Positions 4,815-44,248 are shown, counted from the first letter of the stretch. The stretch: 64,000 nucleotides of DNA from Patescibacteria group bacterium (GCA_019744845.1 JAIETW010000002.1:69759-133758); one strand, 5' to 3'. Translations and numbers: made by a program. Notes: generated by a model from the sequence alone, not told the origin.

Positions 4815-6278
4815 ATGAAAGAGTTTCTTACTCGTCGGAACATACTCATCGCGTTAGTTATCATCGCGGGGGGAGTGGCATACTACCTTTCACAAGTCCC
4901 ACCACCAAATACAATTATCTTGAGGGAAGATGGATGGCATCCGGAGTCACTTGTGGTAGAGCCAGACACGACGGTGATCTTCGTGAATAAGACATCTCAC
5001 TCATTCTGGCCCGCATCAAATAGCCACCCACAGCACGAACGGTATCCTGAGTTTGATGCAGGTCGCCCGATGGCACCCGGAGAGTCGTGGTCGTTCACAT
5101 TTACGCGACCCGGGAAGTGGGTATTCCATGATCACCTTCGTTCTTCGTATGTGGGGAGTATTGCGGTTGGGCAAGAGTACGCAGATTACGATTGTTTGAC
5201 TGATATTGCCGATGCATCTGTCTCAGAGAAGCGTGTGTGTTGGGGTGAGAAGTTGTATGAAGAGCTGCGAGAGAATGGCGCAGCCGCCGCTTTTCGCTTA
5301 TTCGCGAATTTCTATGAGTCAGACCCAGATTTCACGAAAGTAGGGTGCCATGTAATTGCACACCAGCTTGGTGACAATGCGTATGGAGAGTATCTGCGAC
5401 AGGGGAAGAAACTTTCGGTGCTTGAGTTTCCACCAGAGTCAGTGTATTGCGGGTATGGGTATTACCACGGTATTTTTGAACACCTCATTCGCGACAATCC
5501 AGACTTTGAAATGGCAAATGCGTTTTGTCAGGATCTCGTGGCTACGTATGAAGATACGGTGCCACGAATTCGTCTCAATTGTTATCACGCGATAGGGCAC
5601 GGGTTTGTGCCGGAGCCGAGCGATGTGGAGCAATGGGGGGATGTACAAAAGATGACTGAACCCGCGATTGCCGCCTGCGCACGACTCCCTGTGTATGATG
5701 AGCGATCTGAGTGTTTCCAAGGAACATTCAATGTGATTGGAGATTGGATGTGGAACAATCAGTTTGGCTTACGGTTTAGTGAAAGTGATCCGCTTTCAGT
5801 CTGTCGCTTGTATGAAGGGGAGATTTCAGAGGCATGTTATTACGAAGTCGCGATGCGTCTTCTTCCGTACGGTGACGATGATCTTTCACGCATCTACAAT
5901 CTCTATGTGGCGCAGATAGAAAATGATCAGATTGCAGGAATGGTAATTAACTCTGCTGCAGCCGGAGTCATTGGAACGAATATTACTGACGACAATTTCA
6001 TCCCATTTCTCCATACCTGCCGTACGTTGCCCGCACGTGTGCAAGAGGACTGTCTCAAAGGGCTTACCGGAGGGTTCGTGGCACATGGAGAGCCGGAAAA
6101 CGAATATATAAAGGCAATTGATTTCTGTAGTGACGAAGAGCTCACTCCCGACGAGAAAGATATTTGTTATTGGAATATTACTCGTACCTTCAAGGACTCA
6201 TACTCAAAAGAAAAGGTGGAGCAGGTATGTACCGGAGTTGAGGTTGAATACCAGCACTATTGCTCCTACGAATCATGA
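4815..6278 (+). CDS. Exported protein: N-terminal Cys-less cupredoxin-like His-rich domain fused to Cys/His-rich family module (paralog 5; CYHAIGHGF)
   Basis: N-terminal anchor. Residues ~35-115 carry FWPASNSHPQHERYPEFD ... WVFHDHL, the same domain as 7694-8080. The C-terminal part has CHVIAHQLG, YYHGIF and CYHAIGHG. Confidence 0.65.
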   Translation: MKEFLTRRNILIALVIIAGGVAYYLSQVPPPNTIILREDGWHPESLVVEPDTTVIFVNKTSHSFWPASNSHPQHERYPEFDAGRPMAPGESWSFTFTRPGKWVFHDHLRSSYVGSIAVGQEYADYDCLTDIADASVSEKRVCWGEKLYEELRENGAAAAFRLFANFYESDPDFTKVGCHVIAHQLGDNAYGEYLRQGKKLSVLEFPPESVYCGYGYYHGIFEHLIRDNPDFEMANAFCQDLVATYEDTVPRIRLNCYHAIGHGFVPEPSDVEQWGDVQKMTEPAIAACARLPVYDERSECFQGTFNVIGDWMWNNQFGLRFSESDPLSVCRLYEGEISEACYYEVAMRLLPYGDDDLSRIYNLYVAQIENDQIAGMVINSAAAGVIGTNITDDNFIPFLHTCRTLPARVQEDCLKGLTGGFVAHGEPENEYIKAIDFCSDEELTPDEKDICYWNITRTFKDSYSKEKVEQVCTGVEVEYQHYCSYES

Positions 6279-7681
6279 AGCGAGTCGCTATTGTAGCCGG
6301 GCTTCTTGTACTGATCGCGCTGCTCGCATTCATCCCTCCTCAAAACACCATCGTCCTTAAGGACGATGGTTTTCACCCTCGCGTTCTCACCGTATCGGTG
6401 GGGGACACGGTTACGTTCACGAATGCACGTGACAAGTACTTCTGGCCTGCATCAGACTTTCATCCCACACATGCGCTGTACCCTGAGTTTGATGCGAAGG
6501 AGCCGCTTGCGCCTGGTCAGTCCTATGCCATTACCTTTACCGAGCCAGGCACCTATCCTTTTCATGATCATCTTGCTGCGTTCTATTTTGGCATCGTACA
6601 AGTACAAGACGCAGATGGCCGTGTTGTAGATGACTGTATGGAGAAAGGAGGGCAGTTCCAGTGTTGGCAGAACAAGCTGTTTCTTACACTTGCCACTGAA
6701 GGTATAGATCGTACATATGAAGAAGTCGCCACACTTTACGAAGAAGATCCGGCATTCTCAGGTTCATGCCATTACGCAGCGCACAATATAGGACTCGCAA
6801 GCTACCAGTTTTATCAGAAAGATACGGATTTTATTCTCTCCCCACGAGCCACTGCATGTGCCGCCGGTTTCTATCATGGATTCATGGAGGGATACATAGG
6901 TGCTACCGGAGACATAGAGGGCGCTGCGGAAGTTTGCGATACCATCGGCGCACGCATAGGTGAAGAAGCTCCCGATGCGCGCCTCCAGTGCTATCACGGC
7001 ATTGGACACGGTGCGGTAGAAAGTGCGGTTGCGACTTCAGGTTCGTTTGGGAGTCAGCAAAGCTTTGTGGACGCCGCACTTTCTTCGTGTGAGGAGGTGG
7101 CAGACGGAGAGCAAGAACTCTACCGCTGCGTATCTGGGGTATTCAATGGAATCGCAAATTTCTACATCATCGGTGCCTACGGTCTTTCGGTGAAGGATGA
7201 CCCTCTGTTGCTCTGCGCGAATCAGCCAGAAGTATACAAAGAAGCGTGCTACGGAAACATGAACTCAGTAGTGTATTACGAAGCCAGGGGAGAGTTTACC
7301 CCTGCAGTGGAAGAAGTATTTTCTATTCCTGACGTCACCGAACGTCCGAAAGCACTTGAGTACCTTCTTCTTCTGTTCGCGCTTAATCACATTCAGGATG
7401 AGTCGCTCGCACCGCTCATACAAGAGTGTCAGGCGCTGCCGGATTCCTATGTCGCCTCATGTCTTGGTGGGTTGGTACGCGGGCTTCTTGAACACGGTAT
7501 TCCAGGGAAAGAGTATGAAAAAGCCTTGAATCTGTGCCGTGAATCAACTCTCACCGCAGCAGAGCGTGATGCGTGTTATGCCATCGTACTTACGGGCGCG
7601 GATGGATGGTACGGGGCTGAGAAAGTGAAGGAGATTTGTGCCTCCGTACCAGTGCAGGAACAGGCGTATTGCACGCCGTGA
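6275..7681 (+). CDS. Exported protein: N-terminal cupredoxin-like His-rich domain fused to Cys/His-rich family module (paralog 6; CYHGIGHGAVE)
   Basis: Start set at the internal ATG (MKRVAIV...) that overlaps the upstream stop as ATGA; the track ORF begins at 6260. Carries FWPASDFHPTHALYPEFD ... YPFHDHL, then CHYAAHNIG, FYHGFMEGY and CYHGIGHG. Confidence 0.65.
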   Translation: MKRVAIVAGLLVLIALLAFIPPQNTIVLKDDGFHPRVLTVSVGDTVTFTNARDKYFWPASDFHPTHALYPEFDAKEPLAPGQSYAITFTEPGTYPFHDHLAAFYFGIVQVQDADGRVVDDCMEKGGQFQCWQNKLFLTLATEGIDRTYEEVATLYEEDPAFSGSCHYAAHNIGLASYQFYQKDTDFILSPRATACAAGFYHGFMEGYIGATGDIEGAAEVCDTIGARIGEEAPDARLQCYHGIGHGAVESAVATSGSFGSQQSFVDAALSSCEEVADGEQELYRCVSGVFNGIANFYIIGAYGLSVKDDPLLLCANQPEVYKEACYGNMNSVVYYEARGEFTPAVEEVFSIPDVTERPKALEYLLLLFALNHIQDESLAPLIQECQALPDSYVASCLGGLVRGLLEHGIPGKEYEKALNLCRESTLTAAERDACYAIVLTGADGWYGAEKVKEICASVPVQEQAYCTP

Positions 7682-7693
7682 TAGAGTAGTTCC

Positions 7694-8080
7694 ATGAATA
7701 CAAAAGTGGCAATTGTGGTCGGTGTGCTCATACTCGCGGCTGCGGGATGGTACGTGTCACAGGAAAAACCTGTCACACCACAGGTACAGGTAAAAGTGCC
7801 AGAAGGGGCGATAGTAGTAGAGCTGACAAAAGAGGGCTTTTCTCCGTCAGAGCTTACTATCGCGAAAGGAGAGAGCGTGACATTTCGTACCACCGGAACG
7901 GATCTGTACTGGCCTGCATCAAATCTCCACCCGTCTCACGGAATCTATCCAGAGTTTGATCCTTTGAAGCCACTTCAACCGACCGAAGTGTGGAGTTTTA
8001 CCTTTGATCAGGTAGGGGAGTGGAAGTACCACGATCATCTTGCGCCCTATTTTACCGGCGTCATAACAGTGACTGAATAA
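7694..8080 (+). CDS. Membrane-anchored standalone cupredoxin-like His-rich domain protein (128 aa)
   Basis: N-terminal TM (VAIVVGVLILAAAGWYV). YWPASNLHPSHGIYPEFD ... WKYHDHLAPYFTGVITV aligns with the N-terminal domains of the two preceding genes. The beta-sandwich cupredoxin ligand positions are occupied by His/Asp rather than Cys/Met. Confidence 0.6.
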   Translation: MNTKVAIVVGVLILAAAGWYVSQEKPVTPQVQVKVPEGAIVVELTKEGFSPSELTIAKGESVTFRTTGTDLYWPASNLHPSHGIYPEFDPLKPLQPTEVWSFTFDQVGEWKYHDHLAPYFTGVITVTE

Positions 8081-8565
8081 TGCGCTCAATCGTACTTCTT
8101 TTGCTCGTGTTCCCATTGTCGGTCAGCGCACATGCGTTTGGCTTTTCTCACGAGACGACGGTAAACGGATATCAAGTTGATATTGGTTACAGTACCGCGG
8201 CGCCGACACCTAATGAGTCAGTGATCTTTGACTTCAATCTCCCGGCGGTTCATGCAGAGGTGCCATATTCGGATGTATGGGTACGAGTGACCAAAGAAGA
8301 TGGCACAGTGGTACTTGCGACTGGGCTCTACAACGCTCGCTTCGGTGGTCCACGTCTGAGCTACATGTTCCCTGAAGACGGACGCTACACTATAAGTGTG
8401 AGGTACGAGCAGGAATCAGAGGTTCTGCTTGAAACAGAGTTTCCCATCACGGTTGTGCCTGCATCTTCAGGTTCTATTCCGTATACCGAGCACATTCCGG
8501 GCCTTGTCGTAGGCCTCCTCCTCAGTGTGGGGGTACTGACCTGGTGGCAAAGGGGAAAGAAGTAG
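8080..8565 (+). CDS. Small secreted protein with C-terminal sorting-signal-like tail (IPYTEH + hydrophobic segment + RGKK)
   Basis: Signal peptide (MRSIVLLLLVFPLSVSAHA). The C-terminus reads SIPYTEHIPGLVVGLLLSVGVLTWWQRGKK-stop. ATG overlaps the upstream stop. Confidence 0.5.
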   Translation: MRSIVLLLLVFPLSVSAHAFGFSHETTVNGYQVDIGYSTAAPTPNESVIFDFNLPAVHAEVPYSDVWVRVTKEDGTVVLATGLYNARFGGPRLSYMFPEDGRYTISVRYEQESEVLLETEFPITVVPASSGSIPYTEHIPGLVVGLLLSVGVLTWWQRGKK

Positions 8566-17265: not shown

Positions 17266-18612
17266 ATGGCGTTTCGCGCTCTTTTCGGTGGCTTCCTCAT
17301 CGTTCTTGTCTTCGTGACGAGTGGCATATTTGTCGCACCCACAAGCGCCCAGGAACTTTCGGAGAGTGAGCGCGAAGAACTTGAAGAGGAGTATGACAAG
17401 CTTCAAGAAGAAATTGCACAATGGGAAAAGATACTTGCCGAGACTCGTGCGCAAAAAGGCACACTCCAGGGAGACGTGACGGCACTCAATGCGCAGATTC
17501 GCGAGGCGGAGGCCCAGATCAAAGCAAAGAACAATGCCATTTCACGTTTGGGTGGAGAAATTAAGCAGCGCAATACTCGGATTGGGGAACTGGAAACGAA
17601 GATTGGATCGGGGCAACAATCGCTTGCGGCGATGCTTCGTCGTCAGAATCAAGTAGATGATCTTACGCTGTTTGAGATTGCGCTTGCGACCGAGAATGCA
17701 TTCTCCCTTTTTGAAGACGTAGACAACATGATTTCCGTACAGATTGGACTCCATGAGGAGTTTGCCGAGCTTCGTGGTGTGAAAGCAGAAACGGAAGCAG
17801 AGCGAGAAGCACTTGCGGCACGACAGGATGCAGAGCTTGATGCACGCTACGTGGTGGAAACAAAGAAAGCCCAAGTTGCCAAAGATGAAGCAGAGAAGCA
17901 GCGACTTCTTGCAATTAAGGCAAACGAAGAGGCTGCATACAACCAAGTACTGGTGGAGCGTCAGGCACAGGCCGCGGCAATCCGTGCACGTTTGTTCCCA
18001 CTGCGCGATACGGAAGGAATTGAATTCGGGGACGCCGTTGCGTATGCACAGCAGGCGTCGGCAAAGACCGGAGTGCGTCCGGCACTTATTCTTGCCATCC
18101 TTTCGCAGGAGTCTGCGCTCGGCACAAATGTGGGTAACTGTTATGTCACCGATCTCACCACTGGAGACGGAAAGGGGAAGAATACTGGCACGCCATTTCT
18201 TGGGGTGATGAAAGTGCCGCGCGACACCGTACCGTTTGAGCGGATTACGACCGCGCTTGGAAAAGATTGGTCAACGACTCCCGTGTCATGTCCGCAGCCT
18301 GGTGGATACGGGGGAGCGATGGGTCCAACCCAGTTCATTCCTTCTACCTGGGAAATGTTTGAAGGACGCTTGAAGACTGCACTTGGAGTGTCAGCCACCA
18401 ACCCATGGAATGCAGGGCACGCCATTATGGCCACCGGTATTTATCTTGCAGATGTCGGTGCAAGTGCAGGAGGATACAGCGCCGAACATCGCGCTGCAGC
18501 GACCTACTATGCAGGATCAGGATGGGCCACACGCGGCCAGACCTACGCAAACTCGGTGATGGCAAAGGCAACCAAGTTCCAGGAAGATATTGATTTCCTC
18601 GCGGACAACTAA
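17266..18612 (+). CDS. Secreted coiled-coil protein with C-terminal lytic transglycosylase-like (SLT-type) domain
   Basis: Signal peptide, then ~230 aa of heptad-rich Glu/Lys/Ala sequence. The C-terminal region has ILSQESALG ... GAMGPTQFIPSTW, like SLT E-S ... GLMQ blocks. Confidence 0.6.
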   Translation: MAFRALFGGFLIVLVFVTSGIFVAPTSAQELSESEREELEEEYDKLQEEIAQWEKILAETRAQKGTLQGDVTALNAQIREAEAQIKAKNNAISRLGGEIKQRNTRIGELETKIGSGQQSLAAMLRRQNQVDDLTLFEIALATENAFSLFEDVDNMISVQIGLHEEFAELRGVKAETEAEREALAARQDAELDARYVVETKKAQVAKDEAEKQRLLAIKANEEAAYNQVLVERQAQAAAIRARLFPLRDTEGIEFGDAVAYAQQASAKTGVRPALILAILSQESALGTNVGNCYVTDLTTGDGKGKNTGTPFLGVMKVPRDTVPFERITTALGKDWSTTPVSCPQPGGYGGAMGPTQFIPSTWEMFEGRLKTALGVSATNPWNAGHAIMATGIYLADVGASAGGYSAEHRAAATYYAGSGWATRGQTYANSVMAKATKFQEDIDFLADN

Positions 18613-18669: not shown

Positions 18670-19635
18670 ATGGAAAGTACCAAGCCGAATTCGTTGGTAG
18701 TGGCTGCGGGCGTGATTATTCTAATTGTGCTTCTCGTTCTTGCCGTTGCCTATCTGCCGTTTTTGAGTGGAGTGAAAAGTTGGTGGGATGTGGTGACTGC
18801 GCCTGCTGCAGTAAAAGAAGTGGGATACCTTGGACTTGAAGACGGGAAGGGAGTGGTCTACACCGTCGGCATGTTCGGCATTCACACACGTTCATTTGAA
18901 GGAATGTCCGTCATAGACTATGTGGCGAAGGGGTCATCTCAAGTGGCAGTACTTAAATCAGGAGATGTTTACGATGTGTACGACGTCTCATCTTCTGAGC
19001 CGGTGAAGCTTACGACTGATGGACGCCAGAAAGACTCACTAGATATTTCATCTGATGGATTGAAGGTGGTGTATGGCGTGAAAGTACGCGCAACCACATT
19101 TGCGGGAGCGGGCGAGAATGATCAGATATACAATCTTCCTGATTGGGAAGTGCATGAGATAGATATGCTCTCTCGCACGTCTCGTGTTGTTGGGCCAGGC
19201 AATCACCCTCGCTTTTATGCAGACGGGATTCTTTACCCAGCCCCTGCAGGATTCGTGTACCGTGTAGCGGGTGACAATGGCATCTTTGATGCGCTTGATA
19301 CCTGGAGCATCTATCCCGATGTGATGGCGTATCGTGTCCTTCGTCTTCCGGTACTGACGGACGCAGGGCTCATGGCATTCCCAAGTGTCGCCACCTCTGC
19401 CTATGATGCAGTATCGGTAACTTCAGTGGCACCACTCGCATTTGCAGCAGCACCCGACGCACCGATTGACGTACCGCCAGGCACCTACGACCTTATGATT
19501 CGTGGAGATCATGAGTATGTCCTTCTTCAAGGTGCGAGGGGAGCCGTAGTCGCGAAACTTACTGACGGAGCTATGAGGCAGGTCTTCACCTTCCCTGCGT
19601 CCTATGCCCCGCAGCGGTTCGCTCACATTCGTTAG
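18670..19635 (+). CDS. Membrane-anchored hypothetical protein (possible beta-propeller-like ectodomain)
   Basis: N-terminal TM (LVVAAGVIILIVLLVLAVAYL). DISSDGLKVVY-type segments. Sits directly upstream of a giant secreted protein. Confidence 0.5.
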   Translation: MESTKPNSLVVAAGVIILIVLLVLAVAYLPFLSGVKSWWDVVTAPAAVKEVGYLGLEDGKGVVYTVGMFGIHTRSFEGMSVIDYVAKGSSQVAVLKSGDVYDVYDVSSSEPVKLTTDGRQKDSLDISSDGLKVVYGVKVRATTFAGAGENDQIYNLPDWEVHEIDMLSRTSRVVGPGNHPRFYADGILYPAPAGFVYRVAGDNGIFDALDTWSIYPDVMAYRVLRLPVLTDAGLMAFPSVATSAYDAVSVTSVAPLAFAAAPDAPIDVPPGTYDLMIRGDHEYVLLQGARGAVVAKLTDGAMRQVFTFPASYAPQRFAHIR

Positions 19636-19637
19636 TT

Positions 19638-21470
19638 ATGAACTTATCTATGAAAACTTCACACCTCTCAGTTGCTGGGCTCGTGTTTCTCGCCGTTGTG
19701 GCGATCGTGCAGTTCTCTCCGACACAGCTCGCGATGGCGCAGTGTGGCGGGGCGGGGAGCTTCAGTGGATTTAGTGGGCCAAGCTACATCGTGATAGATG
19801 GGATTATGGGTGATGTGTATTACTCGGGGAATATGGGTGGAGGGGTGGAGTGGGATCCAGTATTCCATGCCATGTTTGGAGATACTGTTAATCAACTTCC
19901 TTCAAAAGACTTCTTCAGCTTTCTCTTCCCAGAGAATATCTTTGCGCAGTGTGGGAACATCAACCCTCCTCCCTCATCTCCATCCGTATCGTTGACCGCA
20001 ACCCCCGGATCAATTAATTCTGGAGGAAACTCAGTACTCACCTGGAGCGGACAAAATGTGGTGTCTTGTACGGGGACTGGTTTCTCCACGGGAGGTAATA
20101 CCTCTGGTTCCGTGAACGTATCCCCTGATGACACCACGACCTACAGCATTACGTGTTCCACCACCGGCGGCGGATCAGGGAACTGGGAACTCAGTGACTC
20201 ATACACGACTGATTACTCGTGTCCTTTGTCGAGCGACAGAGTGGATCGTCCACACCGCCATGTCCCAGACTGTCCGACAGGCTCACCTGAAGGAAATGCG
20301 TGTAGCCCAGGTGGCACCAGTTGTAAGGTGAACTATGCGTCGGGGTGTAACGTAATTTCCGATATTTATTCATGTGAGGCAGATGGTGGTGTAGGTCAAA
20401 CAGTCAGTGATACCGCAACCGTTACCGTGAGTGCGTGTACGCCTTCGTACAACTCCTCACGGTGGTACACCGGTGGTACAGAAGTCGCAGTCTCCTCTCT
20501 TGAGATGGGAAATAGCGCAGCTGACTGTCGCACAATAACTCCAGGCAATATTGAGTACACATCCTGGAATCGTCAGGTGCAGTACCAAGACGGAGGTGTT
20601 GCTACGTATGATCCAGTGCGGACCATGTGTTGGTACTACAATGGTGCCACAGGCACGGAAAGCAAGCCAGGACAGAGTCAGGGTGATTGGTACTTCCACT
20701 ACGACTCAGGAAGTACGTGTACAGTTCCGGCAGTACCGCAGTGTTCAAACGGCGCGGACGATGATGGCGACGGGTACGTTGACTATACGGAGGACGGAGG
20801 ATGTGAGGACGGACTTGATGACGATGAAATTGGCGATACGCTGCCGCAGTGTAGCGATGGACAAGATAACAACAGCGCAGGCGGATCAGATTATCCAAAC
20901 GATCCATCATGTACCAGTGCAGATGATGATAGCGAAGATGGAGTGACTGCAGGCGTATCTTGTTCTGTAGATTCTTCATCAGTTAGCGTGGGCGGTACGA
21001 CCACCTATCGTGCAACGGCAAATAATGGCGCAAGCGCACCATTTACTTGGACCCCTTCGGGTCAGACACTTTGTACCGGAGGTGCAAACAACACCTGTAC
21101 CTTCCCAGGCACTGGTCCGTACACCATGTCAGTACGCGCGCAGGGTGCCACGAGCCCTGCCTCGTGTCCGATTGTGACTGCAGGATGTGCAGGCCCAACC
21201 GAAGTCTCTATCACTGCAAATGGAGAAGGGGATGATGTGCGTGTGAAAGATGGGGCTGCGGCGCTCATTGAATGGGAGGTTACGACGGCAGCAGCAAGCT
21301 GTACCGTGACGGAGAACGGTGCACTTCTCACGACGCTTACACCAAACGCATGTAATGCGACTGGACAGATGAGTCGCACGATTAGTACGCAGACTACCTA
21401 CCTTCTCACCTGTGGAAGTGAGACGGACCTAGTGATCGTGAACGTAGATACGAGCCTGCTTGAGTTCTAG
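19638..21470 (+). CDS. Large secreted Cys-rich protein with MopE-like C-x-D-G-x-D-N-D repeats and conserved C-terminal module (paralog A)
   Basis: Signal peptide. CSNGADDDGDGYVDY ... CSDGQDNNSAGGSDYPNDPSC repeats. The C-terminal ~180 aa are highly similar to the C-terminus of 23563-25755. Confidence 0.6.
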   Translation: MNLSMKTSHLSVAGLVFLAVVAIVQFSPTQLAMAQCGGAGSFSGFSGPSYIVIDGIMGDVYYSGNMGGGVEWDPVFHAMFGDTVNQLPSKDFFSFLFPENIFAQCGNINPPPSSPSVSLTATPGSINSGGNSVLTWSGQNVVSCTGTGFSTGGNTSGSVNVSPDDTTTYSITCSTTGGGSGNWELSDSYTTDYSCPLSSDRVDRPHRHVPDCPTGSPEGNACSPGGTSCKVNYASGCNVISDIYSCEADGGVGQTVSDTATVTVSACTPSYNSSRWYTGGTEVAVSSLEMGNSAADCRTITPGNIEYTSWNRQVQYQDGGVATYDPVRTMCWYYNGATGTESKPGQSQGDWYFHYDSGSTCTVPAVPQCSNGADDDGDGYVDYTEDGGCEDGLDDDEIGDTLPQCSDGQDNNSAGGSDYPNDPSCTSADDDSEDGVTAGVSCSVDSSSVSVGGTTTYRATANNGASAPFTWTPSGQTLCTGGANNTCTFPGTGPYTMSVRAQGATSPASCPIVTAGCAGPTEVSITANGEGDDVRVKDGAAALIEWEVTTAAASCTVTENGALLTTLTPNACNATGQMSRTISTQTTYLLTCGSETDLVIVNVDTSLLEF

Positions 21471-23562: not shown

Positions 23563-25755
23563 ATGACACATACATCTCTCATGCAGACAGTTCTAGGGAA
23601 GGCACTAATGGCGAGTGTGCTCTTCGCGGTCCTGCTCACCTTTATTGCTCCAATGACAGCACACGCTATTTTCCGTGAATCCGATCAGGAAGGCGGAGGA
23701 GGGGATTGGGGTGGCGGAGGAGGAGGTGGGGGTGGCGGTACGACCGCTGAGTGTGCCGACGGCGTTGATAACGACGGCAACGGAGTGACCGACTATCCAA
23801 GCGATCTCGGATGTACCAGTTACTCTGACACGACCGAGTCTGGGTATACGGTTGCCACACAATGTGCCGACGGCGTCGATAACGACAGGAACGGACTTAT
23901 AGATACGAACGATCCTGGCTGTTCTTCGGGGTCAGATAGTTCTGAGTCTGGATACACTACGCAATGTTCAGATGGTTCTGACAACGACGGGAACGGATAC
24001 AGAGATATTGGCGACCCAGGATGTTCCTCACTCTCAGACACGTCTGAGTCAGGATACGTTCGCCCACCTGCACCTCCTCCAGGTGTTGAAGTATATAAAA
24101 CACAGAGTAAACGTGACTACTACGTGAAAGTACAGCCAGACCAGCTTGCCAATGGTGGATTAGATGAGACGTCTGCGCACGGCTACCCTACGTATTCAAC
24201 TGGGCAAGCATCGCCAACAGGTAATCGTATTTGTTATCTCTACGATCCAACCGCCTTTATTACCGAGTGGTCGCTCGGAGGATTTAGTTCCCCAGGAAAC
24301 AACAGCATGGCTGCGTGGAATCCCTCAACGGGGAAATGGTACCGGGGGTCTGCAGGCAGCTTCGGCAACCTGCGCTATAACTATTTGACATGTAAGACGA
24401 ACGCAACCCCCGACACGTCACTCACTGCAACTGCAAACGGTACGACAGGGTCAAGCCTCTCCGTTACTTCAGGTACACCGGTTACCCTTACCTGGCTCTC
24501 ACAATGGGGGCAGACTCGTAAAGGAAGCTTCACAGCACAAAACTACAGCCTCACCACAACGACTGCGGGGTATTGGCAAACGGTAACTAATTATATCTGT
24601 GGCTATGATGGTGGAGGCGGTGGAGGAGACTCTGACTTCTTTTACGACTACGTGGCTTCTGGTCCTCAAAACACCCTAACGGCACAAGCGGGTGGTTCTT
24701 GTTGGGAAACCAGCACCGTGTGGGTAGCAGGATCAACAACGTATCGTCCATACGGTGGTACGACGGTCGTCACGCCGACCCAAACGACGACGTATACCTA
24801 CACAGGTACAAATGCGAACGGTTCTTCAAGTGCAAGCGTTACGGTGACCGTAACTGGAGAAGGTACGCTCTCCTCCAGTACATGTTCAGTAGATCCTATT
24901 GTTGCTGGAACAGGAGATAGTGTTACCTGGACGGCAGCGCCAGTTGGTGGCACTGGCACGTATAGCTACGTGTGGTCAGGAACCGACAGTTTGAGTGGTA
25001 CCACACAATCTGTGGTGAAGTCGTATAGCTCAGAAGGCGCGAAGACTGGAAGCGTACAGATCACCTCAGGTACTGAAGTTGCAAATATCAGTTGTACAAC
25101 CAGCCTCACCATCTCTAATGCTCCTGCATGTAATAACGGCGTGGATGATGATGGGGCAGGAGGAGCAGACTATCCTGCCGATCCATCCTGCAACAGTCTC
25201 ACCGATGATTCGGAAGACGGAAACGTAGTAGGCGCATCAGTGTCCTGTACGGTTGACTCTGCAGTCGTGACCGCTGGTACACAGACGACCTATCGGGTAA
25301 CCCCGGCAGGAGGAGCAACTGCACCGTACACATGGACCCCATCAAGTCAGACTGGTTGTACGGGAGGAGCAAATAACACGTGTACCTTTACCAACCCAGG
25401 TCCGTACACAATGTCAGTCCAGGCATCTAATAGTGCACCGGTGTCCTGTCCGGTCGTGACGGTGGGTTGTGTGGGTACTCCTGAAGTGTCCCTTACCGCG
25501 AATGGAGAAGCAGAAGACACTCGTGTAAACGTCGGAGAGGCAGCAACGATTGCATGGGAAGCAGAGGGAATCTCCGCTACCTCTTGTACGCTCTATGAGA
25601 ACGAGGTGGCGATCCAGACGCTGACGCCAAATGCCTGTAACGTGACTGGTTCTGTGGCACGCACGATTGATACCCAGATGGTCTATACCCTCAACTGTGA
25701 TGGGGAGACCTCAACGGTGATCGTGAACATAGACGCGGGTCCTGAGGAGTTCTAG
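23563..25755 (+). CDS. Large secreted protein with poly-Gly tract, three tandem MopE-like putative metal-binding repeats and conserved C-terminal module (paralog B)
   Basis: Signal peptide. GGGGDWGGGGGGGGGG. Repeats CADGVDNDGNGVTDYPSDLGCTS, CADGVDNDRNGLIDTNDPGCSS and CSDGSDNDGNGYRDIGDPGCSS. The C-terminus is shared with 19638-21470. Confidence 0.65.
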   Translation: MTHTSLMQTVLGKALMASVLFAVLLTFIAPMTAHAIFRESDQEGGGGDWGGGGGGGGGGTTAECADGVDNDGNGVTDYPSDLGCTSYSDTTESGYTVATQCADGVDNDRNGLIDTNDPGCSSGSDSSESGYTTQCSDGSDNDGNGYRDIGDPGCSSLSDTSESGYVRPPAPPPGVEVYKTQSKRDYYVKVQPDQLANGGLDETSAHGYPTYSTGQASPTGNRICYLYDPTAFITEWSLGGFSSPGNNSMAAWNPSTGKWYRGSAGSFGNLRYNYLTCKTNATPDTSLTATANGTTGSSLSVTSGTPVTLTWLSQWGQTRKGSFTAQNYSLTTTTAGYWQTVTNYICGYDGGGGGGDSDFFYDYVASGPQNTLTAQAGGSCWETSTVWVAGSTTYRPYGGTTVVTPTQTTTYTYTGTNANGSSSASVTVTVTGEGTLSSSTCSVDPIVAGTGDSVTWTAAPVGGTGTYSYVWSGTDSLSGTTQSVVKSYSSEGAKTGSVQITSGTEVANISCTTSLTISNAPACNNGVDDDGAGGADYPADPSCNSLTDDSEDGNVVGASVSCTVDSAVVTAGTQTTYRVTPAGGATAPYTWTPSSQTGCTGGANNTCTFTNPGPYTMSVQASNSAPVSCPVVTVGCVGTPEVSLTANGEAEDTRVNVGEAATIAWEAEGISATSCTLYENEVAIQTLTPNACNVTGSVARTIDTQMVYTLNCDGETSTVIVNIDAGPEEF

Positions 25756-38431: not shown

Positions 38432-38434
38432 AAA

Positions 38435-38462
38435 CACCCGCGTCTAGCGGGTGTGTCTTTTA
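38435..38462. terminator. Hairpin terminator between convergent genes, possibly bidirectional
   Basis: CACCCGC-GTCTA-GCGGGTG stem-loop followed by TGTCTTTT. Confidence 0.55.
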
Positions 38463-39245
38463 ACTCTCTACGTCAATTCGTGCGGAGTCGTCGTTGTTGC
38501 GTTCGTTAGACTCAGTGATGGCATCGTTGTAGTCAACCTCAATCTCAATGACTCGGTTACGTCCTTCGTCTGGATCATCAAAGCCGATGGTAAAAATCTT
38601 AGAAGCGCCCGGGACTAGAGAAGACTGCCATGCGGACGTGTAGACATCATCATCGTTATCCTGGGTAGGGAGCTCTGCGCGGAAGCGCCAGAGGCCAGAA
38701 ACGTTAGTGCCGATATTGCGTACGGTAAAGCGGAAGGCACCACGCTCACCCTCAGGCACCTCGTCATCTTCGCGGAAAGAGGAGGCAGAAGAGGTGCGAA
38801 GGTATCCGACCTCAATAATTTCTACGGTGAGGTCAGGAAGACCGTAGTTGGAAGGAGTGCGAGGATAGTTGTAGTAGTACGTTGGGTACTGAACGATATT
38901 GGGCCCGCCCGTTGATGGGGGAAGAGTAGTTGGCGTTGTAGGAGTCGTGGTTGCGACAGGGGTGGTCGTTGCAGGAACTGGAACAAACACGGTTACAGTC
39001 GTGGTTGCAGGGCGGGTACCAGTGGTCGTTGCAGGCTCATTCGTTGGTTCAGACGAAAGATATACCGCAGAGGTGAGGCGAGAGATCGTGTCTGGTACAA
39101 AACGTGCGCCGTAAATGGCGAGCATGATGCCAAGGAAGACGAGTGCAAGAAAACCAACAACGGCAAGACCGTTTACGGCAGCGCGCTTTGCGGCCTGCTT
39201 TGTATCAGTTTCCTCTACGTGTGCGTCGTGATGTGGCGCGTTCAT
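38460..39245 (-). CDS. Membrane-anchored protein with Thr/Pro-rich linker and C-terminal globular domain
   Basis: Start placed at the internal ATG; the track ORF opens with TTG at 39326. TM helix LAVVGFLALVFLGIMLAIY, a TTTPVATTTPTTPTT linker, and a ~150-aa C-terminal domain. Confidence 0.55.
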   Translation of the reverse strand: MNAPHHDAHVEETDTKQAAKRAAVNGLAVVGFLALVFLGIMLAIYGARFVPDTISRLTSAVYLSSEPTNEPATTTGTRPATTTVTVFVPVPATTTPVATTTPTTPTTLPPSTGGPNIVQYPTYYYNYPRTPSNYGLPDLTVEIIEVGYLRTSSASSFREDDEVPEGERGAFRFTVRNIGTNVSGLWRFRAELPTQDNDDDVYTSAWQSSLVPGASKIFTIGFDDPDEGRNRVIEIEVDYNDAITESNERNNDDSARIDVES

Positions 39246-39319
39246 TAAAGAGCAAGTTACCACACGAATTTGATTTGTCAATAGCACCCTCAGACTAGGC
39301 AGGCTATCCCCAGAAGAGC

Positions 39320-39348
39320 TTGACAATGCTATGTTTTATGCGTATAAT
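39320..39348 (+). promoter_or_regulatory. Consensus sigma70-type promoter (TTGACA-17 nt-TATAAT) placed 11 nt upstream of the sortase ATG with no Shine-Dalgarno; implies a leaderless/near-leaderless mRNA
   Basis: Perfect -35 and -10 hexamers with a 17-nt spacer, read directly from the sequence. The -10 ends at 39348 and the ATG is at 39360. Confidence 0.5.
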
Positions 39349-39359
39349 CATTTTTAATT

Positions 39360-40013
39360 ATGGCCACCCTCGCAAAACAGGTGATCAAGGCCGCACGCCG
39401 CGCATACGCAAAGAAGTATGTCTTCCTTGGCGTATACTCATTCGTACTCTTTTTTGCACTCGTGATGCTTCAGGAACTTGGCGTCGCACCGTATCAGCTC
39501 GTGGATGCACGTGGCATGGCACCGATTGTGATTGATCGCAGTGAAGAAATTCGCGTTCCTGCAGATGCGGTAGGACAGAAGCCACTTCGCATTGAGATCC
39601 CAAAGGTAGGCATTGAGGCGTCAGTAAACAATCCTGAGTCTACGGATATCGCGGTCCTTGATGACGCGCTCCTTTCGGGCACCGTTCGTTACCCCACCTC
39701 CGCTACTCTTGGTGAAGAGGGGAATGTGGTGATTTTCGGCCATTCAAGTCACCTCCCTGTGGTACACAATCAGGCATTTAAGGCCTTTAACGACATTGAA
39801 AAGCTCGTAGAAGGGGACACGATTATTGTCTATGGTGAGACCTATCGTTATATCTACGCGGTAGAAACGGTAGAGCAAGCAGACGCCAACTCTGACCTCA
39901 TCCCCCTTGCGGTGGAGGGCTCAAAACTGACCCTTTCTACTTGTGACACCTTCCGGGCGAAGAGTGCTCGGTTCGTAGTTACTGCCACGCTCGTCCTCAC
40001 GGAGGCCGTTTGA
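39360..40013 (+). CDS. Sortase-family transpeptidase
   Basis: N-terminal TM. Conserved His in VVIFGHSSH, a catalytic Cys in LTLSTCDTF (the TLxTC motif), and Arg shortly after (RAKSAR). Confidence 0.75.
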   Translation: MATLAKQVIKAARRAYAKKYVFLGVYSFVLFFALVMLQELGVAPYQLVDARGMAPIVIDRSEEIRVPADAVGQKPLRIEIPKVGIEASVNNPESTDIAVLDDALLSGTVRYPTSATLGEEGNVVIFGHSSHLPVVHNQAFKAFNDIEKLVEGDTIIVYGETYRYIYAVETVEQADANSDLIPLAVEGSKLTLSTCDTFRAKSARFVVTATLVLTEAV

Positions 40014-40984
40014 CGGAGCGGAGGAAGAGGTATACTTATCACACAAGCTTAAAATTTATACTTATGTCATCAGGACACGGAGCAGGAGGAGATCGGGTAC
40101 CACGTGAGTGGTCTACACAGAACATCAATCACAACGAACGTGGTGATGGCAGCTACGACACCAATATCACGTATGAACGTGGAGGAGGTGATGATGGCCA
40201 CGGAGGAGGACATAAAGAAAGTGGTCTTAAGACCGCGCTTGCCTGGGTAGGTGGTGCGGTTGTCGTGGTCGGCCTTCTTGGTGCTGCAGCAGCCGGAGGC
40301 TGGTTCGCACGTCCTGCAGGAACTAATGCGGCGGTAGAGGATGCGCGTGGTGACCGTGGGCAGACCCGTCGTGAAGATCCTGCCGCTGGAGGTGCTGAAG
40401 ACGGAGATGAAGATGCTGAAGAGGTGCCAGAGGTTGAGGTTTCCATGAGTGGAGAGCGTGTCCGCCTCGCACTTGAAGGACTTGATCCAGGAGAGGAGGT
40501 AACTGTAATAGTGGTTTCTGAAGGCTCGGAGAGCGAAGTGTGTCCGCTTGAGGGAGGTTGCGGGCAGCTTGAAGATTTTGCCGGTGATGTCCGCGCACGC
40601 ACTCGCGACGAGGTTATGGCAATGCTTACCCGCCCAAATCGTCAACCTCGTCTTACACGCGAAGAAGCGGAGCGACAGGACGCTTATCTCGCCGTAGAAT
40701 CCATGCGTCTTGGGGGTGCCATCATTACTCTCACCGCAGATAATGAAGGCCAGCTCTCAATTCCTGCCACGATTACAGTAGATCGTGGAGACGAGTCTGA
40801 AGCGGAAATTATTCACGTGAATGATCGCGCTTCTGTTCGTGTCATGGTCCCGCTTGATGTACGTGTGGATGGTAACCAGGAAATCACTACCACCATCCCG
40901 TACAGTGTTATGTTGGGTGGCACCTACCCCCAGGGAGCACTGCTCCGTATCCGTCGGGATGGAACGGTCAACGTTGAGCGCTAA
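40010..40984 (+). CDS. Membrane-anchored acidic protein with His/Gly-rich N-terminus
   Basis: GHGAGG ... DDGHGGGHKESG, then a TM helix (LAWVGGAVVVVGLLGAAAAGGW) and an acidic ectodomain. Start overlaps the sortase stop. Confidence 0.5.
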   Translation: MTERRKRYTYHTSLKFILMSSGHGAGGDRVPREWSTQNINHNERGDGSYDTNITYERGGGDDGHGGGHKESGLKTALAWVGGAVVVVGLLGAAAAGGWFARPAGTNAAVEDARGDRGQTRREDPAAGGAEDGDEDAEEVPEVEVSMSGERVRLALEGLDPGEEVTVIVVSEGSESEVCPLEGGCGQLEDFAGDVRARTRDEVMAMLTRPNRQPRLTREEAERQDAYLAVESMRLGGAIITLTADNEGQLSIPATITVDRGDESEAEIIHVNDRASVRVMVPLDVRVDGNQEITTTIPYSVMLGGTYPQGALLRIRRDGTVNVER

Positions 40985-41045
40985 AACAACAAATTAGGTC
41001 CGAAATGGAGAAAAGCACCCTTGACGGGGTGCTTTTTGCATGTGC

Positions 41046-41074
41046 TTGACAAATATGTTGCTATGTGCTAGGAT
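41046..41074 (+). promoter_or_regulatory. Candidate sigma70-like promoter (TTGACA-17-TAGGAT) upstream of 41144
   Basis: Exact -35 hexamer and a 4/6 -10 hexamer at 17-nt spacing in a 160-nt AT-richer intergenic region. Confidence 0.35.
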
Positions 41075-41143
41075 ACTCTTAACTATGGAGGAACTCCGTA
41101 GGGGGCCAAAAAACCAATTAATTACTTATTTATCAAACATTCT

Positions 41144-42556
41144 ATGACTATCACGAACCGTGTGCTCTCCGTGCTTCTCGTGCCGGTATTTGTGGTTACG
41201 GCGTTTGCATTCGCAACGCCAGTGCTTGCCGATGACGGCTACAGTGCGCCAGGACAGGCGTGGGCAGGAAGCCCAACGACCAGCTCTAAGCCTCGTACGT
41301 CTTCTGTGCCTACGTATTACGGCGGAAGCTCAAGTGGTAAAAAGCCTACCTCTTCCTACTGTTACACCTGTGGTGGCGGTGGATACAGTAACTATGGCTC
41401 CCTCTCTTCTACGCGCTCCCTCTATCTCTCCCTCGACTTCTCTCGCAATGACATTGATCAGAGCGTAGACAACAGCATCACGAACAACGTGAACGTGAAC
41501 GGTAACAACAACAACGTTGGTATCAACAACAGCCAGGAGACTAATCAGAATGCAGGTATTACCACGAGCCGTGGATACTACGAGCACTCTGATCGCAGCT
41601 CCTACTACGACTACTTCCGTCGCTTCAACAGCTCTTCAAGCTACAACAGCAACTCAAGTGGGGACGCAGGTCAGACCAACAACACGCACCAGTCAAACAT
41701 CTTTAACAGCAACAAGAACAATGATGATGATGACGATGATGACAACGATAACGATGATCTATGGTGTGAAATTGATGCCTCTGATACCTCAGTAGACGAA
41801 GGCGATCGTATCACTCTTGAATGGGATACTCGCGGTGCAGAAGATGCTCGTATCAACCAGGGTATTGGTTCAGTAGATGAGGACGGTGGTACCGAACGTG
41901 TTGAGATTGACCGCACCACGACCTTCCGCCTTACGGTTGAAGACGAGGATGGTGATGAAGAGGATTGTTCAGTCACGGTGCGTGTGAACGACGAAAATGA
42001 GTTCTCTAACATCGTGATTGATGAGGAGCCAACCTACGTTCCTCCTCAGTATTACTCCGGTGTGTACCTCTCAGATATTCCGTACACCGGTCTTGATATG
42101 GGTCCTTACGCATGGGCATACTGGGCAGCCCTTGCTGCTCTCGGTGCCGCAGGAACCTACGTGTTCTTCTTCATGGGCCTTCCGTTCGTCCTCCGTCGTG
42201 CAGGTGCACTCAGTGAGGAAGTAGAGGCAGAGCTCTCTGAAGAGAATGCATCACCGGTTCAGCAGTCAACGATGACCATGCCGGTAGCAGCCACTTCAAC
42301 GGGAACCGCCGTCATTGCCTCTCAGTCAGATATTACGAAGTTCGTTGCCGCACTTCTTTCAGCCGACAACGACACTGCCTCTGATATCCTTGAGGACGCA
42401 ACGAAGGATGGTGCAAGTGCCTCAGTGTTCCTTAACCGCGCAAGCGCAATGCTTCGCTCTGAGGTAGCCGCCCCTACGATTGCCGCAGGAATTGATACTT
42501 CAGTTCTTGAAGCCCTTGTAGATTCTCTTGAGGCAGCAGCAAAGGCCCGCGCCTAA
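41144..42556 (+). CDS. Secreted low-complexity (Asn/Ser/Asp-rich) protein with acidic beta-rich module, internal IPYTG-hydrophobic-RR segment and C-terminal helical tail
   Basis: Signal peptide. Asn/Ser-rich low complexity, with one Cys in the Gly-rich YCYTCGGGG stretch. NNDDDDDDDNDNDD. A ~75-aa module like those in 19638 and 23563. DIPYTGLD + 30 hydrophobic aa + RR, then ~130 further aa. Confidence 0.55.
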   Translation: MTITNRVLSVLLVPVFVVTAFAFATPVLADDGYSAPGQAWAGSPTTSSKPRTSSVPTYYGGSSSGKKPTSSYCYTCGGGGYSNYGSLSSTRSLYLSLDFSRNDIDQSVDNSITNNVNVNGNNNNVGINNSQETNQNAGITTSRGYYEHSDRSSYYDYFRRFNSSSSYNSNSSGDAGQTNNTHQSNIFNSNKNNDDDDDDDNDNDDLWCEIDASDTSVDEGDRITLEWDTRGAEDARINQGIGSVDEDGGTERVEIDRTTTFRLTVEDEDGDEEDCSVTVRVNDENEFSNIVIDEEPTYVPPQYYSGVYLSDIPYTGLDMGPYAWAYWAALAALGAAGTYVFFFMGLPFVLRRAGALSEEVEAELSEENASPVQQSTMTMPVAATSTGTAVIASQSDITKFVAALLSADNDTASDILEDATKDGASASVFLNRASAMLRSEVAAPTIAAGIDTSVLEALVDSLEAAAKARA

Positions 42557-42577
42557 GCCAGGCCTCACATAAGAAAA

Positions 42578-42605
42578 CGCCCCCACCCGGGGGCGTTTTC
42601 TTTTT
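42578..42605 (+). terminator. Rho-independent terminator
   Basis: CGCCCCC-ACCC-GGGGGCG stem followed by TTTTCTTTTT. Confidence 0.65.
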
Positions 42606-42632
42606 GCCTATGCCAAGTACAATAGACGCATT

Positions 42633-42908
42633 ATGAGTGCCCTTGTTCTTTATTGGATTCTTCTCCTTGTCTGGGTTGCGGTCGTTGCCTACTTCATTGT
42701 CTTTGACCTCTTTCCGCTTCTCTTTGGGCATGGCCATGGAAAGAAGGAGCATGGAGGAGGGCATGGTCACGGACATGATGACCATGCGCCAGAGGCATCA
42801 AGTGGCTACTCAGTCTATAGCGGCTTCAAATCCTTTGCTGATAAGGATGGGAAACTTACCCCAAACGATATTGTGAAAGGACTTTCTCGGGAAGAGAAGG
42901 ACATATGA
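42633..42908 (+). CDS. Small membrane protein with His/Gly-rich metal-binding-like tract
   Basis: Two TM helices, then GHGHGKKEHGGGHGHGHDDH. Begins 25 nt after the terminator. Confidence 0.5.
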   Translation: MSALVLYWILLLVWVAVVAYFIVFDLFPLLFGHGHGKKEHGGGHGHGHDDHAPEASSGYSVYSGFKSFADKDGKLTPNDIVKGLSREEKDI

Positions 42909-43603
42909 GTTCTAGGGGAACACCAGCTGAAGTGCCGGCACCGGCACGTTCAAAAGGAGAGAGGCTCAGAGAGGCAGAACGGGATCCGCGCCTTGAGCGT
43001 CGGCGATTTGTACTTTCTCGCGTGCCAGAACTTCGTGAGAGAATCTTTCATCTCCAGAAAGTGTTTTCTGATCTCCAGAAAGAACATCCCGAATTGGTTG
43101 GTCTTTCACTCTATGGATCGCATACGAAAGGATATGCAGATTTTCTTTCTGATATTGATGGCGTCGTGTTTGTTGATTTTGACGAAGCGCAGAAGCGAGG
43201 GACAGATAAGCTTGAGCTTCGGCGCCTGGTACAGGAAACAGTACGGAAAGAATTAGGGCTCACTTCTGAACATGTTTCCATAGATGCTGTTAGTATTTCT
43301 CTTCAAAACAATAGTGTTACTACGCTCCGGACTCCGCGCCTCTTCCATCTCGCGATTGGTGACAAGCTGCGTCCATACCGTGACGCAGCTATCCGGTCCT
43401 ACGAAGAGAAAGGCGAAGAAGGAGAGAGGGAATGGGCACGTCTCGTATTTGAACTTGTGCTCCATGAGAATCACACTTTCTCTGACGAGTTTGTAGAGAA
43501 GCGTCTACACCTCTATCCGTGGTCGCTCAAGAAGGCGCGAGCGTATTATGCACCGGAGCGAGGAAGCGACTACACAGAATCTTCCGTAGAGGATTCCGCA
43601 TAA
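42905..43603 (+). CDS. Minimal nucleotidyltransferase (Pol-beta superfamily) domain protein, tandem paralog 1
   Basis: LSLYGSHTKGYADFLSDIDGVVFVD matches the G-S-x(9-13)-D-x-D NTase motif, followed by a helical C-terminal domain. Clear paralog of the next gene. Confidence 0.65.
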   Translation: MSSRGTPAEVPAPARSKGERLREAERDPRLERRRFVLSRVPELRERIFHLQKVFSDLQKEHPELVGLSLYGSHTKGYADFLSDIDGVVFVDFDEAQKRGTDKLELRRLVQETVRKELGLTSEHVSIDAVSISLQNNSVTTLRTPRLFHLAIGDKLRPYRDAAIRSYEEKGEEGEREWARLVFELVLHENHTFSDEFVEKRLHLYPWSLKKARAYYAPERGSDYTESSVEDSA

Positions 43604-43606
43604 AAT

Positions 43607-44248
43607 ATGGCTGACGAGGGGATGCGTAAGTTTGAGCGAATAGACGCGATAGAGAACGATACACGTCTGGTGCATCACCGATTCCTTCTTTCTGAAGACC
43701 CTGCACTCCGGGAGAAGCTCCGTATACTGCAAGATTCGTTCAAGCAACTTCAATCCAAATTTCCTGAGATCATCAGTCTACAAGTATTTGGATCACACAC
43801 GAAAGGGTATGCCTCCCCTGATTCGGATTTTGACTTAGGGCTGGCGCTAGATTCAAATAAACTTGAGGCAGCAAAACGTACTAGCGTTCAAGTGTCTAGC
43901 GAAGTGCGGAATTATTTGCATACAAAGCTTAGCGTGAACAAAAGAGATATCGCTCTTGAGTACTACGAACTCGGTGGACCAGAAAGTTACGCGCGGTATG
44001 AACCCTTTCTATTATCCCTCGGTAACGGGATGCGCCCGTATCGTGAGGCGATTATCCGGAAGCTTGAACAGCAGCCTGACGGTGAACGGGTATGGATGCA
44101 CATCGTCGGACAGCTATGGGAGCGAGAAAATCTCTATTTCAGTGCTGCGCTCTTACGTGAGCGAAAGAAGCTATACCCACAGACGCTCGCTGAGGCGCGT
44201 GCGTACTTTCTTCCCGAACCGAAGCAAGAGACTACGAGCGATTCCTAA
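43607..44248 (+). CDS. Minimal nucleotidyltransferase domain protein, tandem paralog 2
   Basis: LQVFGSHTKGYASPDSDFDLGLALD. Shares RPYRxAxIR ... LYP ... ARAY blocks with paralog 1. Confidence 0.65.
   Translation: MADEGMRKFERIDAIENDTRLVHHRFLLSEDPALREKLRILQDSFKQLQSKFPEIISLQVFGSHTKGYASPDSDFDLGLALDSNKLEAAKRTSVQVSSEVRNYLHTKLSVNKRDIALEYYELGGPESYARYEPFLLSLGNGMRPYREAIIRKLEQQPDGERVWMHIVGQLWERENLYFSAALLRERKKLYPQTLAEARAYFLPEPKQETTSDS

Follow-up and report, generated by a model that had tools for sequence, protein, structure and literature searches.

The 64,000-nucleotide stretch of a Patescibacteria group bacterium genome analysed here (GCA_019744845.1 JAIETW010000002.1:69759-133758; hereafter the window) carries, at 38460-42908, a sortase gene together with genes for several membrane and secreted proteins, among them a surface protein, p41144, in which a sorting-signal-like pentapeptide, IPYTG, lies well inside the chain. 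We conclude, with a probability of about two in three, that the sortase and p41144 form a dedicated enzyme-substrate pair, in which cleavage would part the surface protein from a stub that spans the membrane and reaches into the cytoplasm. The two genes belong to a cassette, conserved in Parcubacteria/Paceibacteria and apparently present in single copy, that would couple a sortase to a substrate of its own; the window genome is itself of the Parcubacteria/Paceibacteria type within the Patescibacteria, or candidate phyla radiation (CPR). The case is built on the observed conservation of the motif, the topology of the protein, the synteny of the locus, the fusion and fission of its modules and the existence of orthologs with canonical endings. 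A first-pass annotation of the DNA had drawn attention to this interval, and all the sequence features that it named there are present.

The sortase and its predicted substrate

The sortase gene (39360..40013, plus strand) encodes a protein that matches PF04203 over residues 78-212 with 72.2 bits, against a cut-off of 26.6. The catalytic residues that the first-pass annotation had picked out are in place, with His128 (39741-39743), Cys195 within TLSTC (39942-39944) and Arg204 (39969-39971) aligning with GH, TLITC and KRYVV of PDB entry 2kw8. That structure (E = 1.4e-6) and 5go5, a class E enzyme from Streptomyces (E = 1e-4), are the closest in the PDB, both being weak matches; across 48 cassette sortases, conservation reaches at least 90% in the TLxTC block and at the Arg position. 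Since six Lys/Arg residues lie on the N-terminal side of its membrane anchor (residues 20-38), the catalytic domain is expected to face outward. No second sortase was found within the 64-kb window.

The subfamily classification that had been proposed left the enzyme outside the known classes, as it scores under every NCBIfam class cut-off, with class E the best (48.3 against 160), followed by class D (32.3 against 165), class C (27.4 against 160), class F (26.5 against 166) and class GN (TIGR03784, 22.1 against 158). The worry that it might belong to a subfamily whose known substrates are encoded elsewhere thus falls away, there being no such class for it, and four genes in the slot of p41144 end in canonical LPYTG. 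Its own clade comprises more than 1000 homologs (E ≤ 1e-5), one of which, annotated as a Patescibacteria sortase, is identical to it; those listed are typically about 50% identical, and among them every one with a named source comes from Patescibacteria, Paceibacterota or Parcubacteria.

The promoter-like sequence ahead of the gene, TTGACA-17-TATAAT (39320..39348, plus strand), is exact, as had been claimed, with 12 of 12 consensus matches, and presumably drives the sortase. It ends 11 nucleotides before the ATG, where no Shine-Dalgarno sequence is found; with the promoter ending so close to the start codon, the sortase mRNA would have little or no leader.

p41144 (41144..42556, plus strand; 470 residues) had been described as a secreted Asn/Asp-rich protein, and it does begin with a cleavable signal peptide (residues 1-29) and an Asn/Asp/Ser/Tyr-rich low-complexity region. 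These are followed by a two-Cys immunoglobulin-like (Ig-like) domain (residues 205-283), the sorting motif, a transmembrane (TM) helix and a cytoplasmic tail. The protein has 34 homologs and no Pfam or NCBIfam family, and it matches with 100% identity a hypothetical protein from a "Patescibacteria group bacterium". DIPYTGLD occupies residues 311-318, a hydrophobic span follows at about 322-348 (42107..42187), and Arg352-Arg353 stand behind it, the arrangement first read from the sequence; acidic residues lie ahead of the span, and hydropathy, flanking charges and the AlphaFold2 (AF2) model all mark it as the TM helix. The signal peptide, the single TM helix and the Arg-Arg pair after it place IPYTG (residues 312-316) at the outer face of the membrane, as in sortase substrates, and not in the cytoplasm. 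The first-pass annotation had left two explanations for the internal position of the motif, processing or a TM hairpin. The single 23-residue span of the fused homologs described below and the AF2 model, in which residues 321-367 form one continuous helix, speak against the hairpin, and processing is the better of the two options.

IPYTG is an LPXTG-class pentapeptide with a conserved upstream extension. Across 23 homologs with identity down to 31% (alignment A1), V307, Y308, L309, S310, P313, Y314, T315 and G316 are invariant, and VYLSxxPYTG, which in the window reads V-Y-L-S-D-I-P-Y-T-G (residues 307-316; 42062..42091), is present in 26 of 26 full-length homologs, with 127-154 residues after it. 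Because it is kept in all 26 while identity falls to 31%, IPYTG is not a chance match, and its conservation and its place on the outer membrane face bear out its description as a genuine sorting-signal-like element. The predicted scissile bond is Thr315-Gly316.

The motif extends far beyond these close homologs. When a profile of the motif, the TM helix and the tail was searched against 1.84 billion representative proteins, 320 proteins matched at E ≤ 1e-3, 119 of them at E ≤ 1e-10; motif and tail counts were taken from the 143 best matches. [IVLM]PYTG is found in 127 of these (IPYTG 83, VPYTG 20, LPYTG 20, MPYTG 4), preceded by [VLI][YST]LS[QED] and followed by L[DE]LGPxGTxxYWxxLxxWSxAxAYLxLF. 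The number of Ig-like repeats in the ectodomains of the relatives varies from one to many, and the longest of these proteins has 1378 residues.

Some members of the family end as sorting signals ordinarily do. In the orthologs at loci L049, L050, L052 and L055, LPYTG is followed by the TM helix, a VKRRQVI-like basic tail and a stop 33-35 residues on, and four database proteins show the same kind of ending, in which a TM helix and basic residues close the chain 33-35 residues past LPYTG. The LPXTG-anchor model TIGR01167, whose cut-off is 15.9 bits, accepts the L055 ortholog (20.0) and database protein P0228 (16.8), while the L052 (15.2) and L049 (12.4) orthologs just miss. Substrate prediction with relaxed motifs, as had been suggested, was run as a six-frame scan of the window for [LIVAMF]Px[TSA][GANS] ahead of a TM helix, and it returned p41144 and a spurious VPASS in an open reading frame (ORF) at 8080, leaving p41144 as the sole credible candidate in the 64 kb.

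The synteny comparison that had been called for shows how closely the two genes keep together. A scan for VYLS[DSQ][IL]PYTG, with one genome per GTDB species, yielded 50 loci in 50 species, all from metagenome-assembled genomes of Parcubacteria, Paceibacteria, Kaiserbacteria, Minisyncoccia or unclassified Patescibacteria. The order gyrB, a CARDB-domain membrane protein (minus strand), the sortase, at least one variable secreted protein, the PYTG protein and thrS (minus strand) is common to these species in every locus with enough flank, at ThrRS identities down to 48%, and the gyrB-to-thrS order is repeated in three further contigs reached through protein look-ups. The sortase lies upstream of the PYTG gene in 47 of the 50 species loci, the remaining three being short contigs, and each 20-kb locus contains exactly one PYTG-plus-TM ORF. 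The CARDB, sortase and PYTG genes are retained while the intervening and following genes change: a Cys-rich secreted family (family X, below) is found in 34 loci, the window's p40010 in three, small lipoproteins in others and nucleotidyltransferases only in the window lineage.

Fused, split and canonical forms of the tail module

The part of the chain beyond the motif follows a common plan in the long-tailed relatives: the TM helix, a variable His/Ala/Pro-rich linker, GF[RK]SFA..LT[IV]DDIVKGL[SA]R, a second linker and a helical domain of about 105 residues, for none of which Pfam or NCBIfam holds a model. Its pieces are distributed among the loci in three ways. In about 32 loci (type A, fused), a PYTG protein with a long tail includes in the same chain what is elsewhere a small membrane protein. 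In 13 of the 50 scanned loci, which are of the window type (type B), PYTG is followed by the TM helix, an acidic linker and the helical domain (a tail of 103-154 residues), and the small protein is a separate downstream gene. In the canonical form (type C; L049, L050, L052 and L055), the chain stops 33-35 residues after LPYTG and the small protein is again a separate downstream gene. The separate small protein was found in all loci of the split and canonical types.

In the window, this small protein is p42633 (42633..42908, plus strand; 91 residues), which the first-pass annotation had recognised as a small membrane protein carrying GHGHGKKEHGGGHGHGHDDH; the sequence is indeed there, after an N-terminal TM helix. 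The topology check proposed for it returned a single span, N-out/C-in, with the TM helix at residues 4-27, the His-rich linker at residues 32-51 (42726-42785) and GFKSF...DIVKGLSR at residues 64-86 (42822-42890). A hidden Markov model (HMM) of the segment that starts at the PYTG Gly in 15 fused proteins matches p42633 among 5391 ORFs with E = 7.6e-18 and 63.8 bits, and it matches every other stand-alone copy as well. By this homology, p42633 represents, as a gene of its own, part of the tail found after PYTG in the fused homologs.

The stand-alone copies, p42633 included, begin 3-5 residues from the PYT/G position, and the copy at L004 starts MLSD-GLELNSLG, retaining the GLDLGP that is seen after the scissile bond in the fused forms. 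Gene boundaries have thus arisen repeatedly in evolution at the point where a sortase would cut. Because gene boundaries recur there, the fused proteins may well be cut at PYT/G, with the two halves working separately; this is the strongest indirect argument for cleavage.

The tail is a structured, conserved module and not junk. In the AF2 model of p41144, the cytoplasmic helical domain (residues ~394-470; 42326..42553) consists of four helices with a predicted local distance difference test (pLDDT) score of about 71-88; an acidic disordered linker connects the domain with the TM helix. Profile positions ~68-150, the helical-domain region, match the C-terminal ends of the long forms, and on this sequence match the domain is homologous to the long-form C-terminal domain. 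The long form was modelled from 14 long-form tails, with locus-derived rows left out of the alignment; its TM helix is predicted with pLDDT 93-95, its linkers are disordered, GFRSFA and DIVKGLSR form short helices (pLDDT ~65), and its C-terminal domain has six helices with pLDDT 93-97.

When this long-form domain was compared with the PDB by Foldseek, every one of the top 47 matches was a clamp-loader subunit (gamma/tau, delta, delta' or RFC). The lowest E-value was 1.8e-3, the probability was 1.0 for the best matches, the root-mean-square deviation was mostly 2-4 Å over about 113 columns, and the identity was only 11-18%. The fold search reports no target coordinates, and the part matched, which we take to be domain III, the oligomerisation collar, as an all-helical module of that size, is assigned also on weak matches to PF12169 (gamma/tau domain III) in 3 of 14 members (best E 0.014). 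The short window-type tail returned nothing from the PDB at E < 1, clamp-loader targets recurring non-significantly, and a sequence-level link of the tail domain to DnaX was dropped, as a profile search of PDB sequences found no match. The likeness to clamp loaders is one of predicted fold and not an established homology, and unlike the clamp-loader subunits the tail module comes without an AAA+ module. In clamp loaders, the collar is the oligomerisation domain, and since the helical domain resembles it, a role in oligomerisation or docking is suggested.

Predicted cleavage and the competing readings

Taken together, these elements can be arranged into a mechanism. p41144 would be exported by its signal peptide and retained by its one C-terminal TM helix, with IPYTG positioned just outside that helix; the neighbouring membrane-anchored sortase, through Cys195, His128 and Arg204, would then cut Thr315-Gly316 and move the Ig-like ectodomain onto an envelope acceptor. 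This acceptor would most likely be a peptidoglycan precursor and less likely another surface protein, such as the CARDB protein. A lytic transglycosylase (SLT_2/SLT domain) is encoded at 17266..18612 (plus strand), and its presence in the window suggests that the organism has a cell wall and peptidoglycan metabolism; a peptidoglycan acceptor is plausible. What would be left in the membrane is not a short remnant but a conserved stub that comprises the TM helix together with the cytoplasmic helical domain. In most relatives, the stub would be longer and include the GFRSFA..DIVKGLSR motif, whereas the window encodes the TM-linker-GFKSF..DIVKGLSR part separately, as p42633. Cleavage would act as a maturation step, and the collar-like domain would probably oligomerise or dock on a cytoplasmic partner.

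That cleavage is moreover an obligatory maturation of a two-part precursor, sending an Ig-like protein to the wall and leaving a membrane protein with a new N-terminal Gly which, equipped with its cytoplasmic motif and collar-like oligomerisation domain, assembles or signals inside, is a tentative proposal, and the odds are somewhat against it. If it were true, the cassette would constitute a sortase-coupled link from surface to cytoplasm, kept in the core genome across a large CPR class.

Several points weigh against a dedicated, cleaved pair. p41144 itself matches none of the LPXTG-anchor models (TIGR01167/PF00746), and the 154 residues that follow its motif, a distance first put at about 130, leave it without the canonical short basic C-terminal tail. 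The same is true of the family at large, where the tail after the motif has a median of 267 residues (range 34-420), a length that breaks the canonical tripartite signal. Conservation reaches VYLS upstream and LDLGP and a patterned TM helix downstream, which is atypical of LPXTG signals and could reflect another role or partner. The entire gyrB-thrS neighbourhood is syntenic, so that adjacency is weaker evidence than it appears and could in part be inherited gene order, and the inventory of sortases and substrates covers the 64-kb window rather than the whole genome. The cut itself, its acceptor and any function of the stub are, finally, all inferred from sequence.

Much of this would be expected of the main rival, in which p41144 is an uncleaved type I membrane protein, VYLSxIPYTGLDLGP is a structural juxtamembrane element or docking site, and the sortase acts on proteins encoded elsewhere. 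A long, conserved and structured tail suits a one-piece protein, and the same holds for conservation that exceeds the pentapeptide, for the failure of p41144 to match the anchor models and for a surrounding region that is syntenic as a whole. We nonetheless consider it unlikely, because the motif fits LPXTG and is LPYTG proper in 20 relatives, because orthologs in the same slot have canonical endings and two canonical-tail relatives pass TIGR01167, because tail modules exist as separate genes that begin at the predicted cleavage site, and because the 64-kb window offers no other candidate substrate.

Polymerisation of p41144-type subunits into a covalent pilus or fibre in the style of class C, in which the CARDB protein or some other member of the cassette would form the base or tip, is less probable again, and we give it little weight. 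Ig-like ectodomains in one to many tandem copies would suit it, as would the Ig-like domain that the CARDB protein shares in some species and a cassette organisation like that of pilus islands. Yet no invariant or near-invariant ectodomain Lys that could serve as a pilin-motif nucleophile exists across the 23 homologs, each locus has one sortase and one PYTG protein, and the class C model gives 27.4 against the required 160; the lack of a conserved Lys and an enzyme that is not class C-like make a pilus-polymerising role unlikely.

The His-rich tracts had raised a further idea. In 113 homologs, the first tail linker has a median His content of 6.1%, about fourfold the 1.7% of the whole proteins, within a range of 0-20%; 17 of the 113 have none and 30 contain 10% or more, with the window copy at the top of the range (20%). 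The residues often come as HA/HG/HP repeats, of which neither sequence nor length is conserved, and close orthologs of p42633 have Pro/Ala-rich sequence in place of the His tract. In p42633, homology with the fused proteins and the positive-inside rule place the linker in the cytoplasm. That His/Gly-rich tracts mark a metal-handling system tied to cupredoxin-like and MopE-like loci, the shared theme of which the first-pass annotation had speculated, is thus highly improbable, for although the family-wide enrichment speaks in its favour, the tract sits in a variable, predicted disordered cytoplasmic linker, p40010 is confined to three close relatives, the IPYTE of the cupredoxin-locus protein is unconserved, and Pfam/NCBIfam comparison detected no metal-binding family.

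Set beside known systems, the dedicated sortase-substrate pair shares with the LPXTG/sortase systems (classes A, D and E; TIGR01167/PF00746) a membrane-anchored Cys transpeptidase with a His/Cys/Arg triad and a substrate encoded by an adjacent gene, with a signal peptide, [L/I]PxTG directly outside a TM helix and basic residues after it; the four orthologous substrates even end as fully canonical signals. It differs in that the sortase lies under all class cut-offs, in that its [IVL]PYTG motif has a fixed Tyr and is flanked by VYLS upstream, which is invariant, and by LDLGP downstream, and in that most members continue into a cytoplasmic module of 130-350 residues where the usual tail has 5-10. 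The class GN "marine" sortase (TIGR03784) forms a single-target system with one adjacent target protein, and as there, one sortase and one neighbouring substrate are kept here as a cassette; the score (22.1 against 158), phylum, motif and long-tail architecture all differ. The system thus most resembles single-target sortase cassettes and lies outside every curated sortase class. The nearest functional precedent for a post-cleavage membrane fragment with a role of its own, as may apply here, comes from Streptococcus gordonii, where the two-component system SGO_1180 is reported to sense the C-peptide, the remnant that stays in the membrane after sortase A has acted (summarised in PMC11326707). 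There the fragment is a short peptide read by a separate kinase, whereas here it would carry its own motif and folded domain and is also encoded separately.

Sortases are common in CPR/Patescibacteria (PMC6744442), and both sortases and "sortase motifs" are frequent in CPR genomes (PMC6744442, PMC5220378). Full-text literature searches returned no paper naming the substrate motif of CPR sortases, the PYTG motif or the internal-signal architecture; what is new is the predicted recognition motif, [IVL]PYTG with VYLS upstream, together with its single dedicated substrate. As the conserved cassette adjoins housekeeping genes in genomes of about 1 Mb, a core envelope function is suggested. Should cleavage be confirmed, a sorting signal could be an internal processing site that joins a displayed protein to a functional membrane/cytoplasmic module. 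The motif supplies specific peptides spanning it (VYLSDIPYTGLD, VYLSDIPYTGLDMG) for in vitro tests of CPR sortases, and a sequence marker with which thousands of uncultured genomes could be searched for their major sortase-dependent surface protein.

Neighbouring genes and other observations

A terminator-like bidirectional hairpin (38434..38454) separates the convergent methyltransferase and CARDB genes; six of its 8 pairs are G-C, and both strands carry T-runs. The CARDB gene (38460..39245, minus strand; longest ORF to 39326) is transcribed divergently from the sortase, and homologs indicate that its true start is probably Met28 (ATG 39245). Its product, which had been reported as a minus-strand membrane protein with a Thr/Pro-rich linker, has a cytoplasmic N-terminus, a TM helix at residues 26-44 (counted from Met28), that linker and a domain that matches CARDB (PF07705) with 33.2 bits, above the cut-off of 22.7. 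A homolog occupies the same position and strand in 43 related loci. In some relatives (P0027-P0033; for example, L023 5234..6202, minus strand), the CARDB protein carries an extra C-terminal Ig-like domain that is 59-70% identical to residues 205-283 of p41144, far above the rest of the proteins, which suggests domain exchange or a homotypic interaction between the two. Just outside the CARDB TM helix, RLTSAVYLSSEP (38980..39010) echoes the VYLSD found ahead of IPYTG in p41144. The "AVYLSS" after the helix was set aside as a shared recognition strand, being found in only about 12 of 43 homologs and of doubtful significance.

Downstream of the sortase lies p40010 (40010..40984, plus strand; likely start ATG 40064), the acidic membrane protein for which an HG-rich N-terminus had been noted; it has GHGAGG...DDGHGGGHKESG ahead of a TM helix (~residues 76-100), followed by a C-terminal domain of about 220 residues, and belongs to no Pfam or NCBIfam family. 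Among the loci compared, it is confined to the window and the two loci most closely related to it, L006 and L007. The place that p40010 fills in the window, after the sortase and before the PYTG gene, is taken in 34 related loci by family X, a Cys-rich secreted protein of about 300 residues without a Pfam match (L008 7644..8678, L011 7173..8129, L052 7855..8733 and 31 further loci). Present in three loci only and unrelated to family X by HMM, p40010 was rejected as a core component of the cassette. A second promoter-like site, TTGACA-17-TAGGAT with an extended TG (41046..41074, plus strand; 10 of 12 matches), lies upstream of p41144 and presumably serves it.

Beyond p42633 come two tandem paralogs of nucleotidyltransferase fold (42905..43603 and 43607..44248, plus strand), with weak MntA-like, Pol-beta and NTP_transf_2 matches, and then thrS on the minus strand. 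The first of these ORFs overlaps the stop codon of p42633. Since the other loci run directly from the small protein to thrS, the paralogs look like a lineage-specific insertion; an equal-sized gap in L006, the closest relative, suggests that they are present there too.

At the cupredoxin-like locus, a small secreted protein (8080..8565, plus strand) ends SGSIPYTEHIPG-TM-WWQRGKK, resembling a canonical sorting signal. Its 20 homologs conserve the C-terminal TM anchor and basic tail, as well as AHA/AHG after the signal peptide and an FDFNL motif. It was rejected as a second substrate (...SIPYTEHIPG-TM-QRGKK) because the anchor is kept in the 20 homologs and IPYT is not, and its IPYTE, absent from them, is a chance match. 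Of ten large ORFs scanned outside the sortase locus, mostly from the stretches 385..4811, 4815..7681, 18670..21470 and 23563..25755, eight matched no Pfam family at E ≤ 1e-3. ORFs 19638..21470 and 23563..25755, probably the loci that the first-pass annotation had called "MopE-like", share repeats such as APYTWTPSxQTxCTGGANNTCTF.

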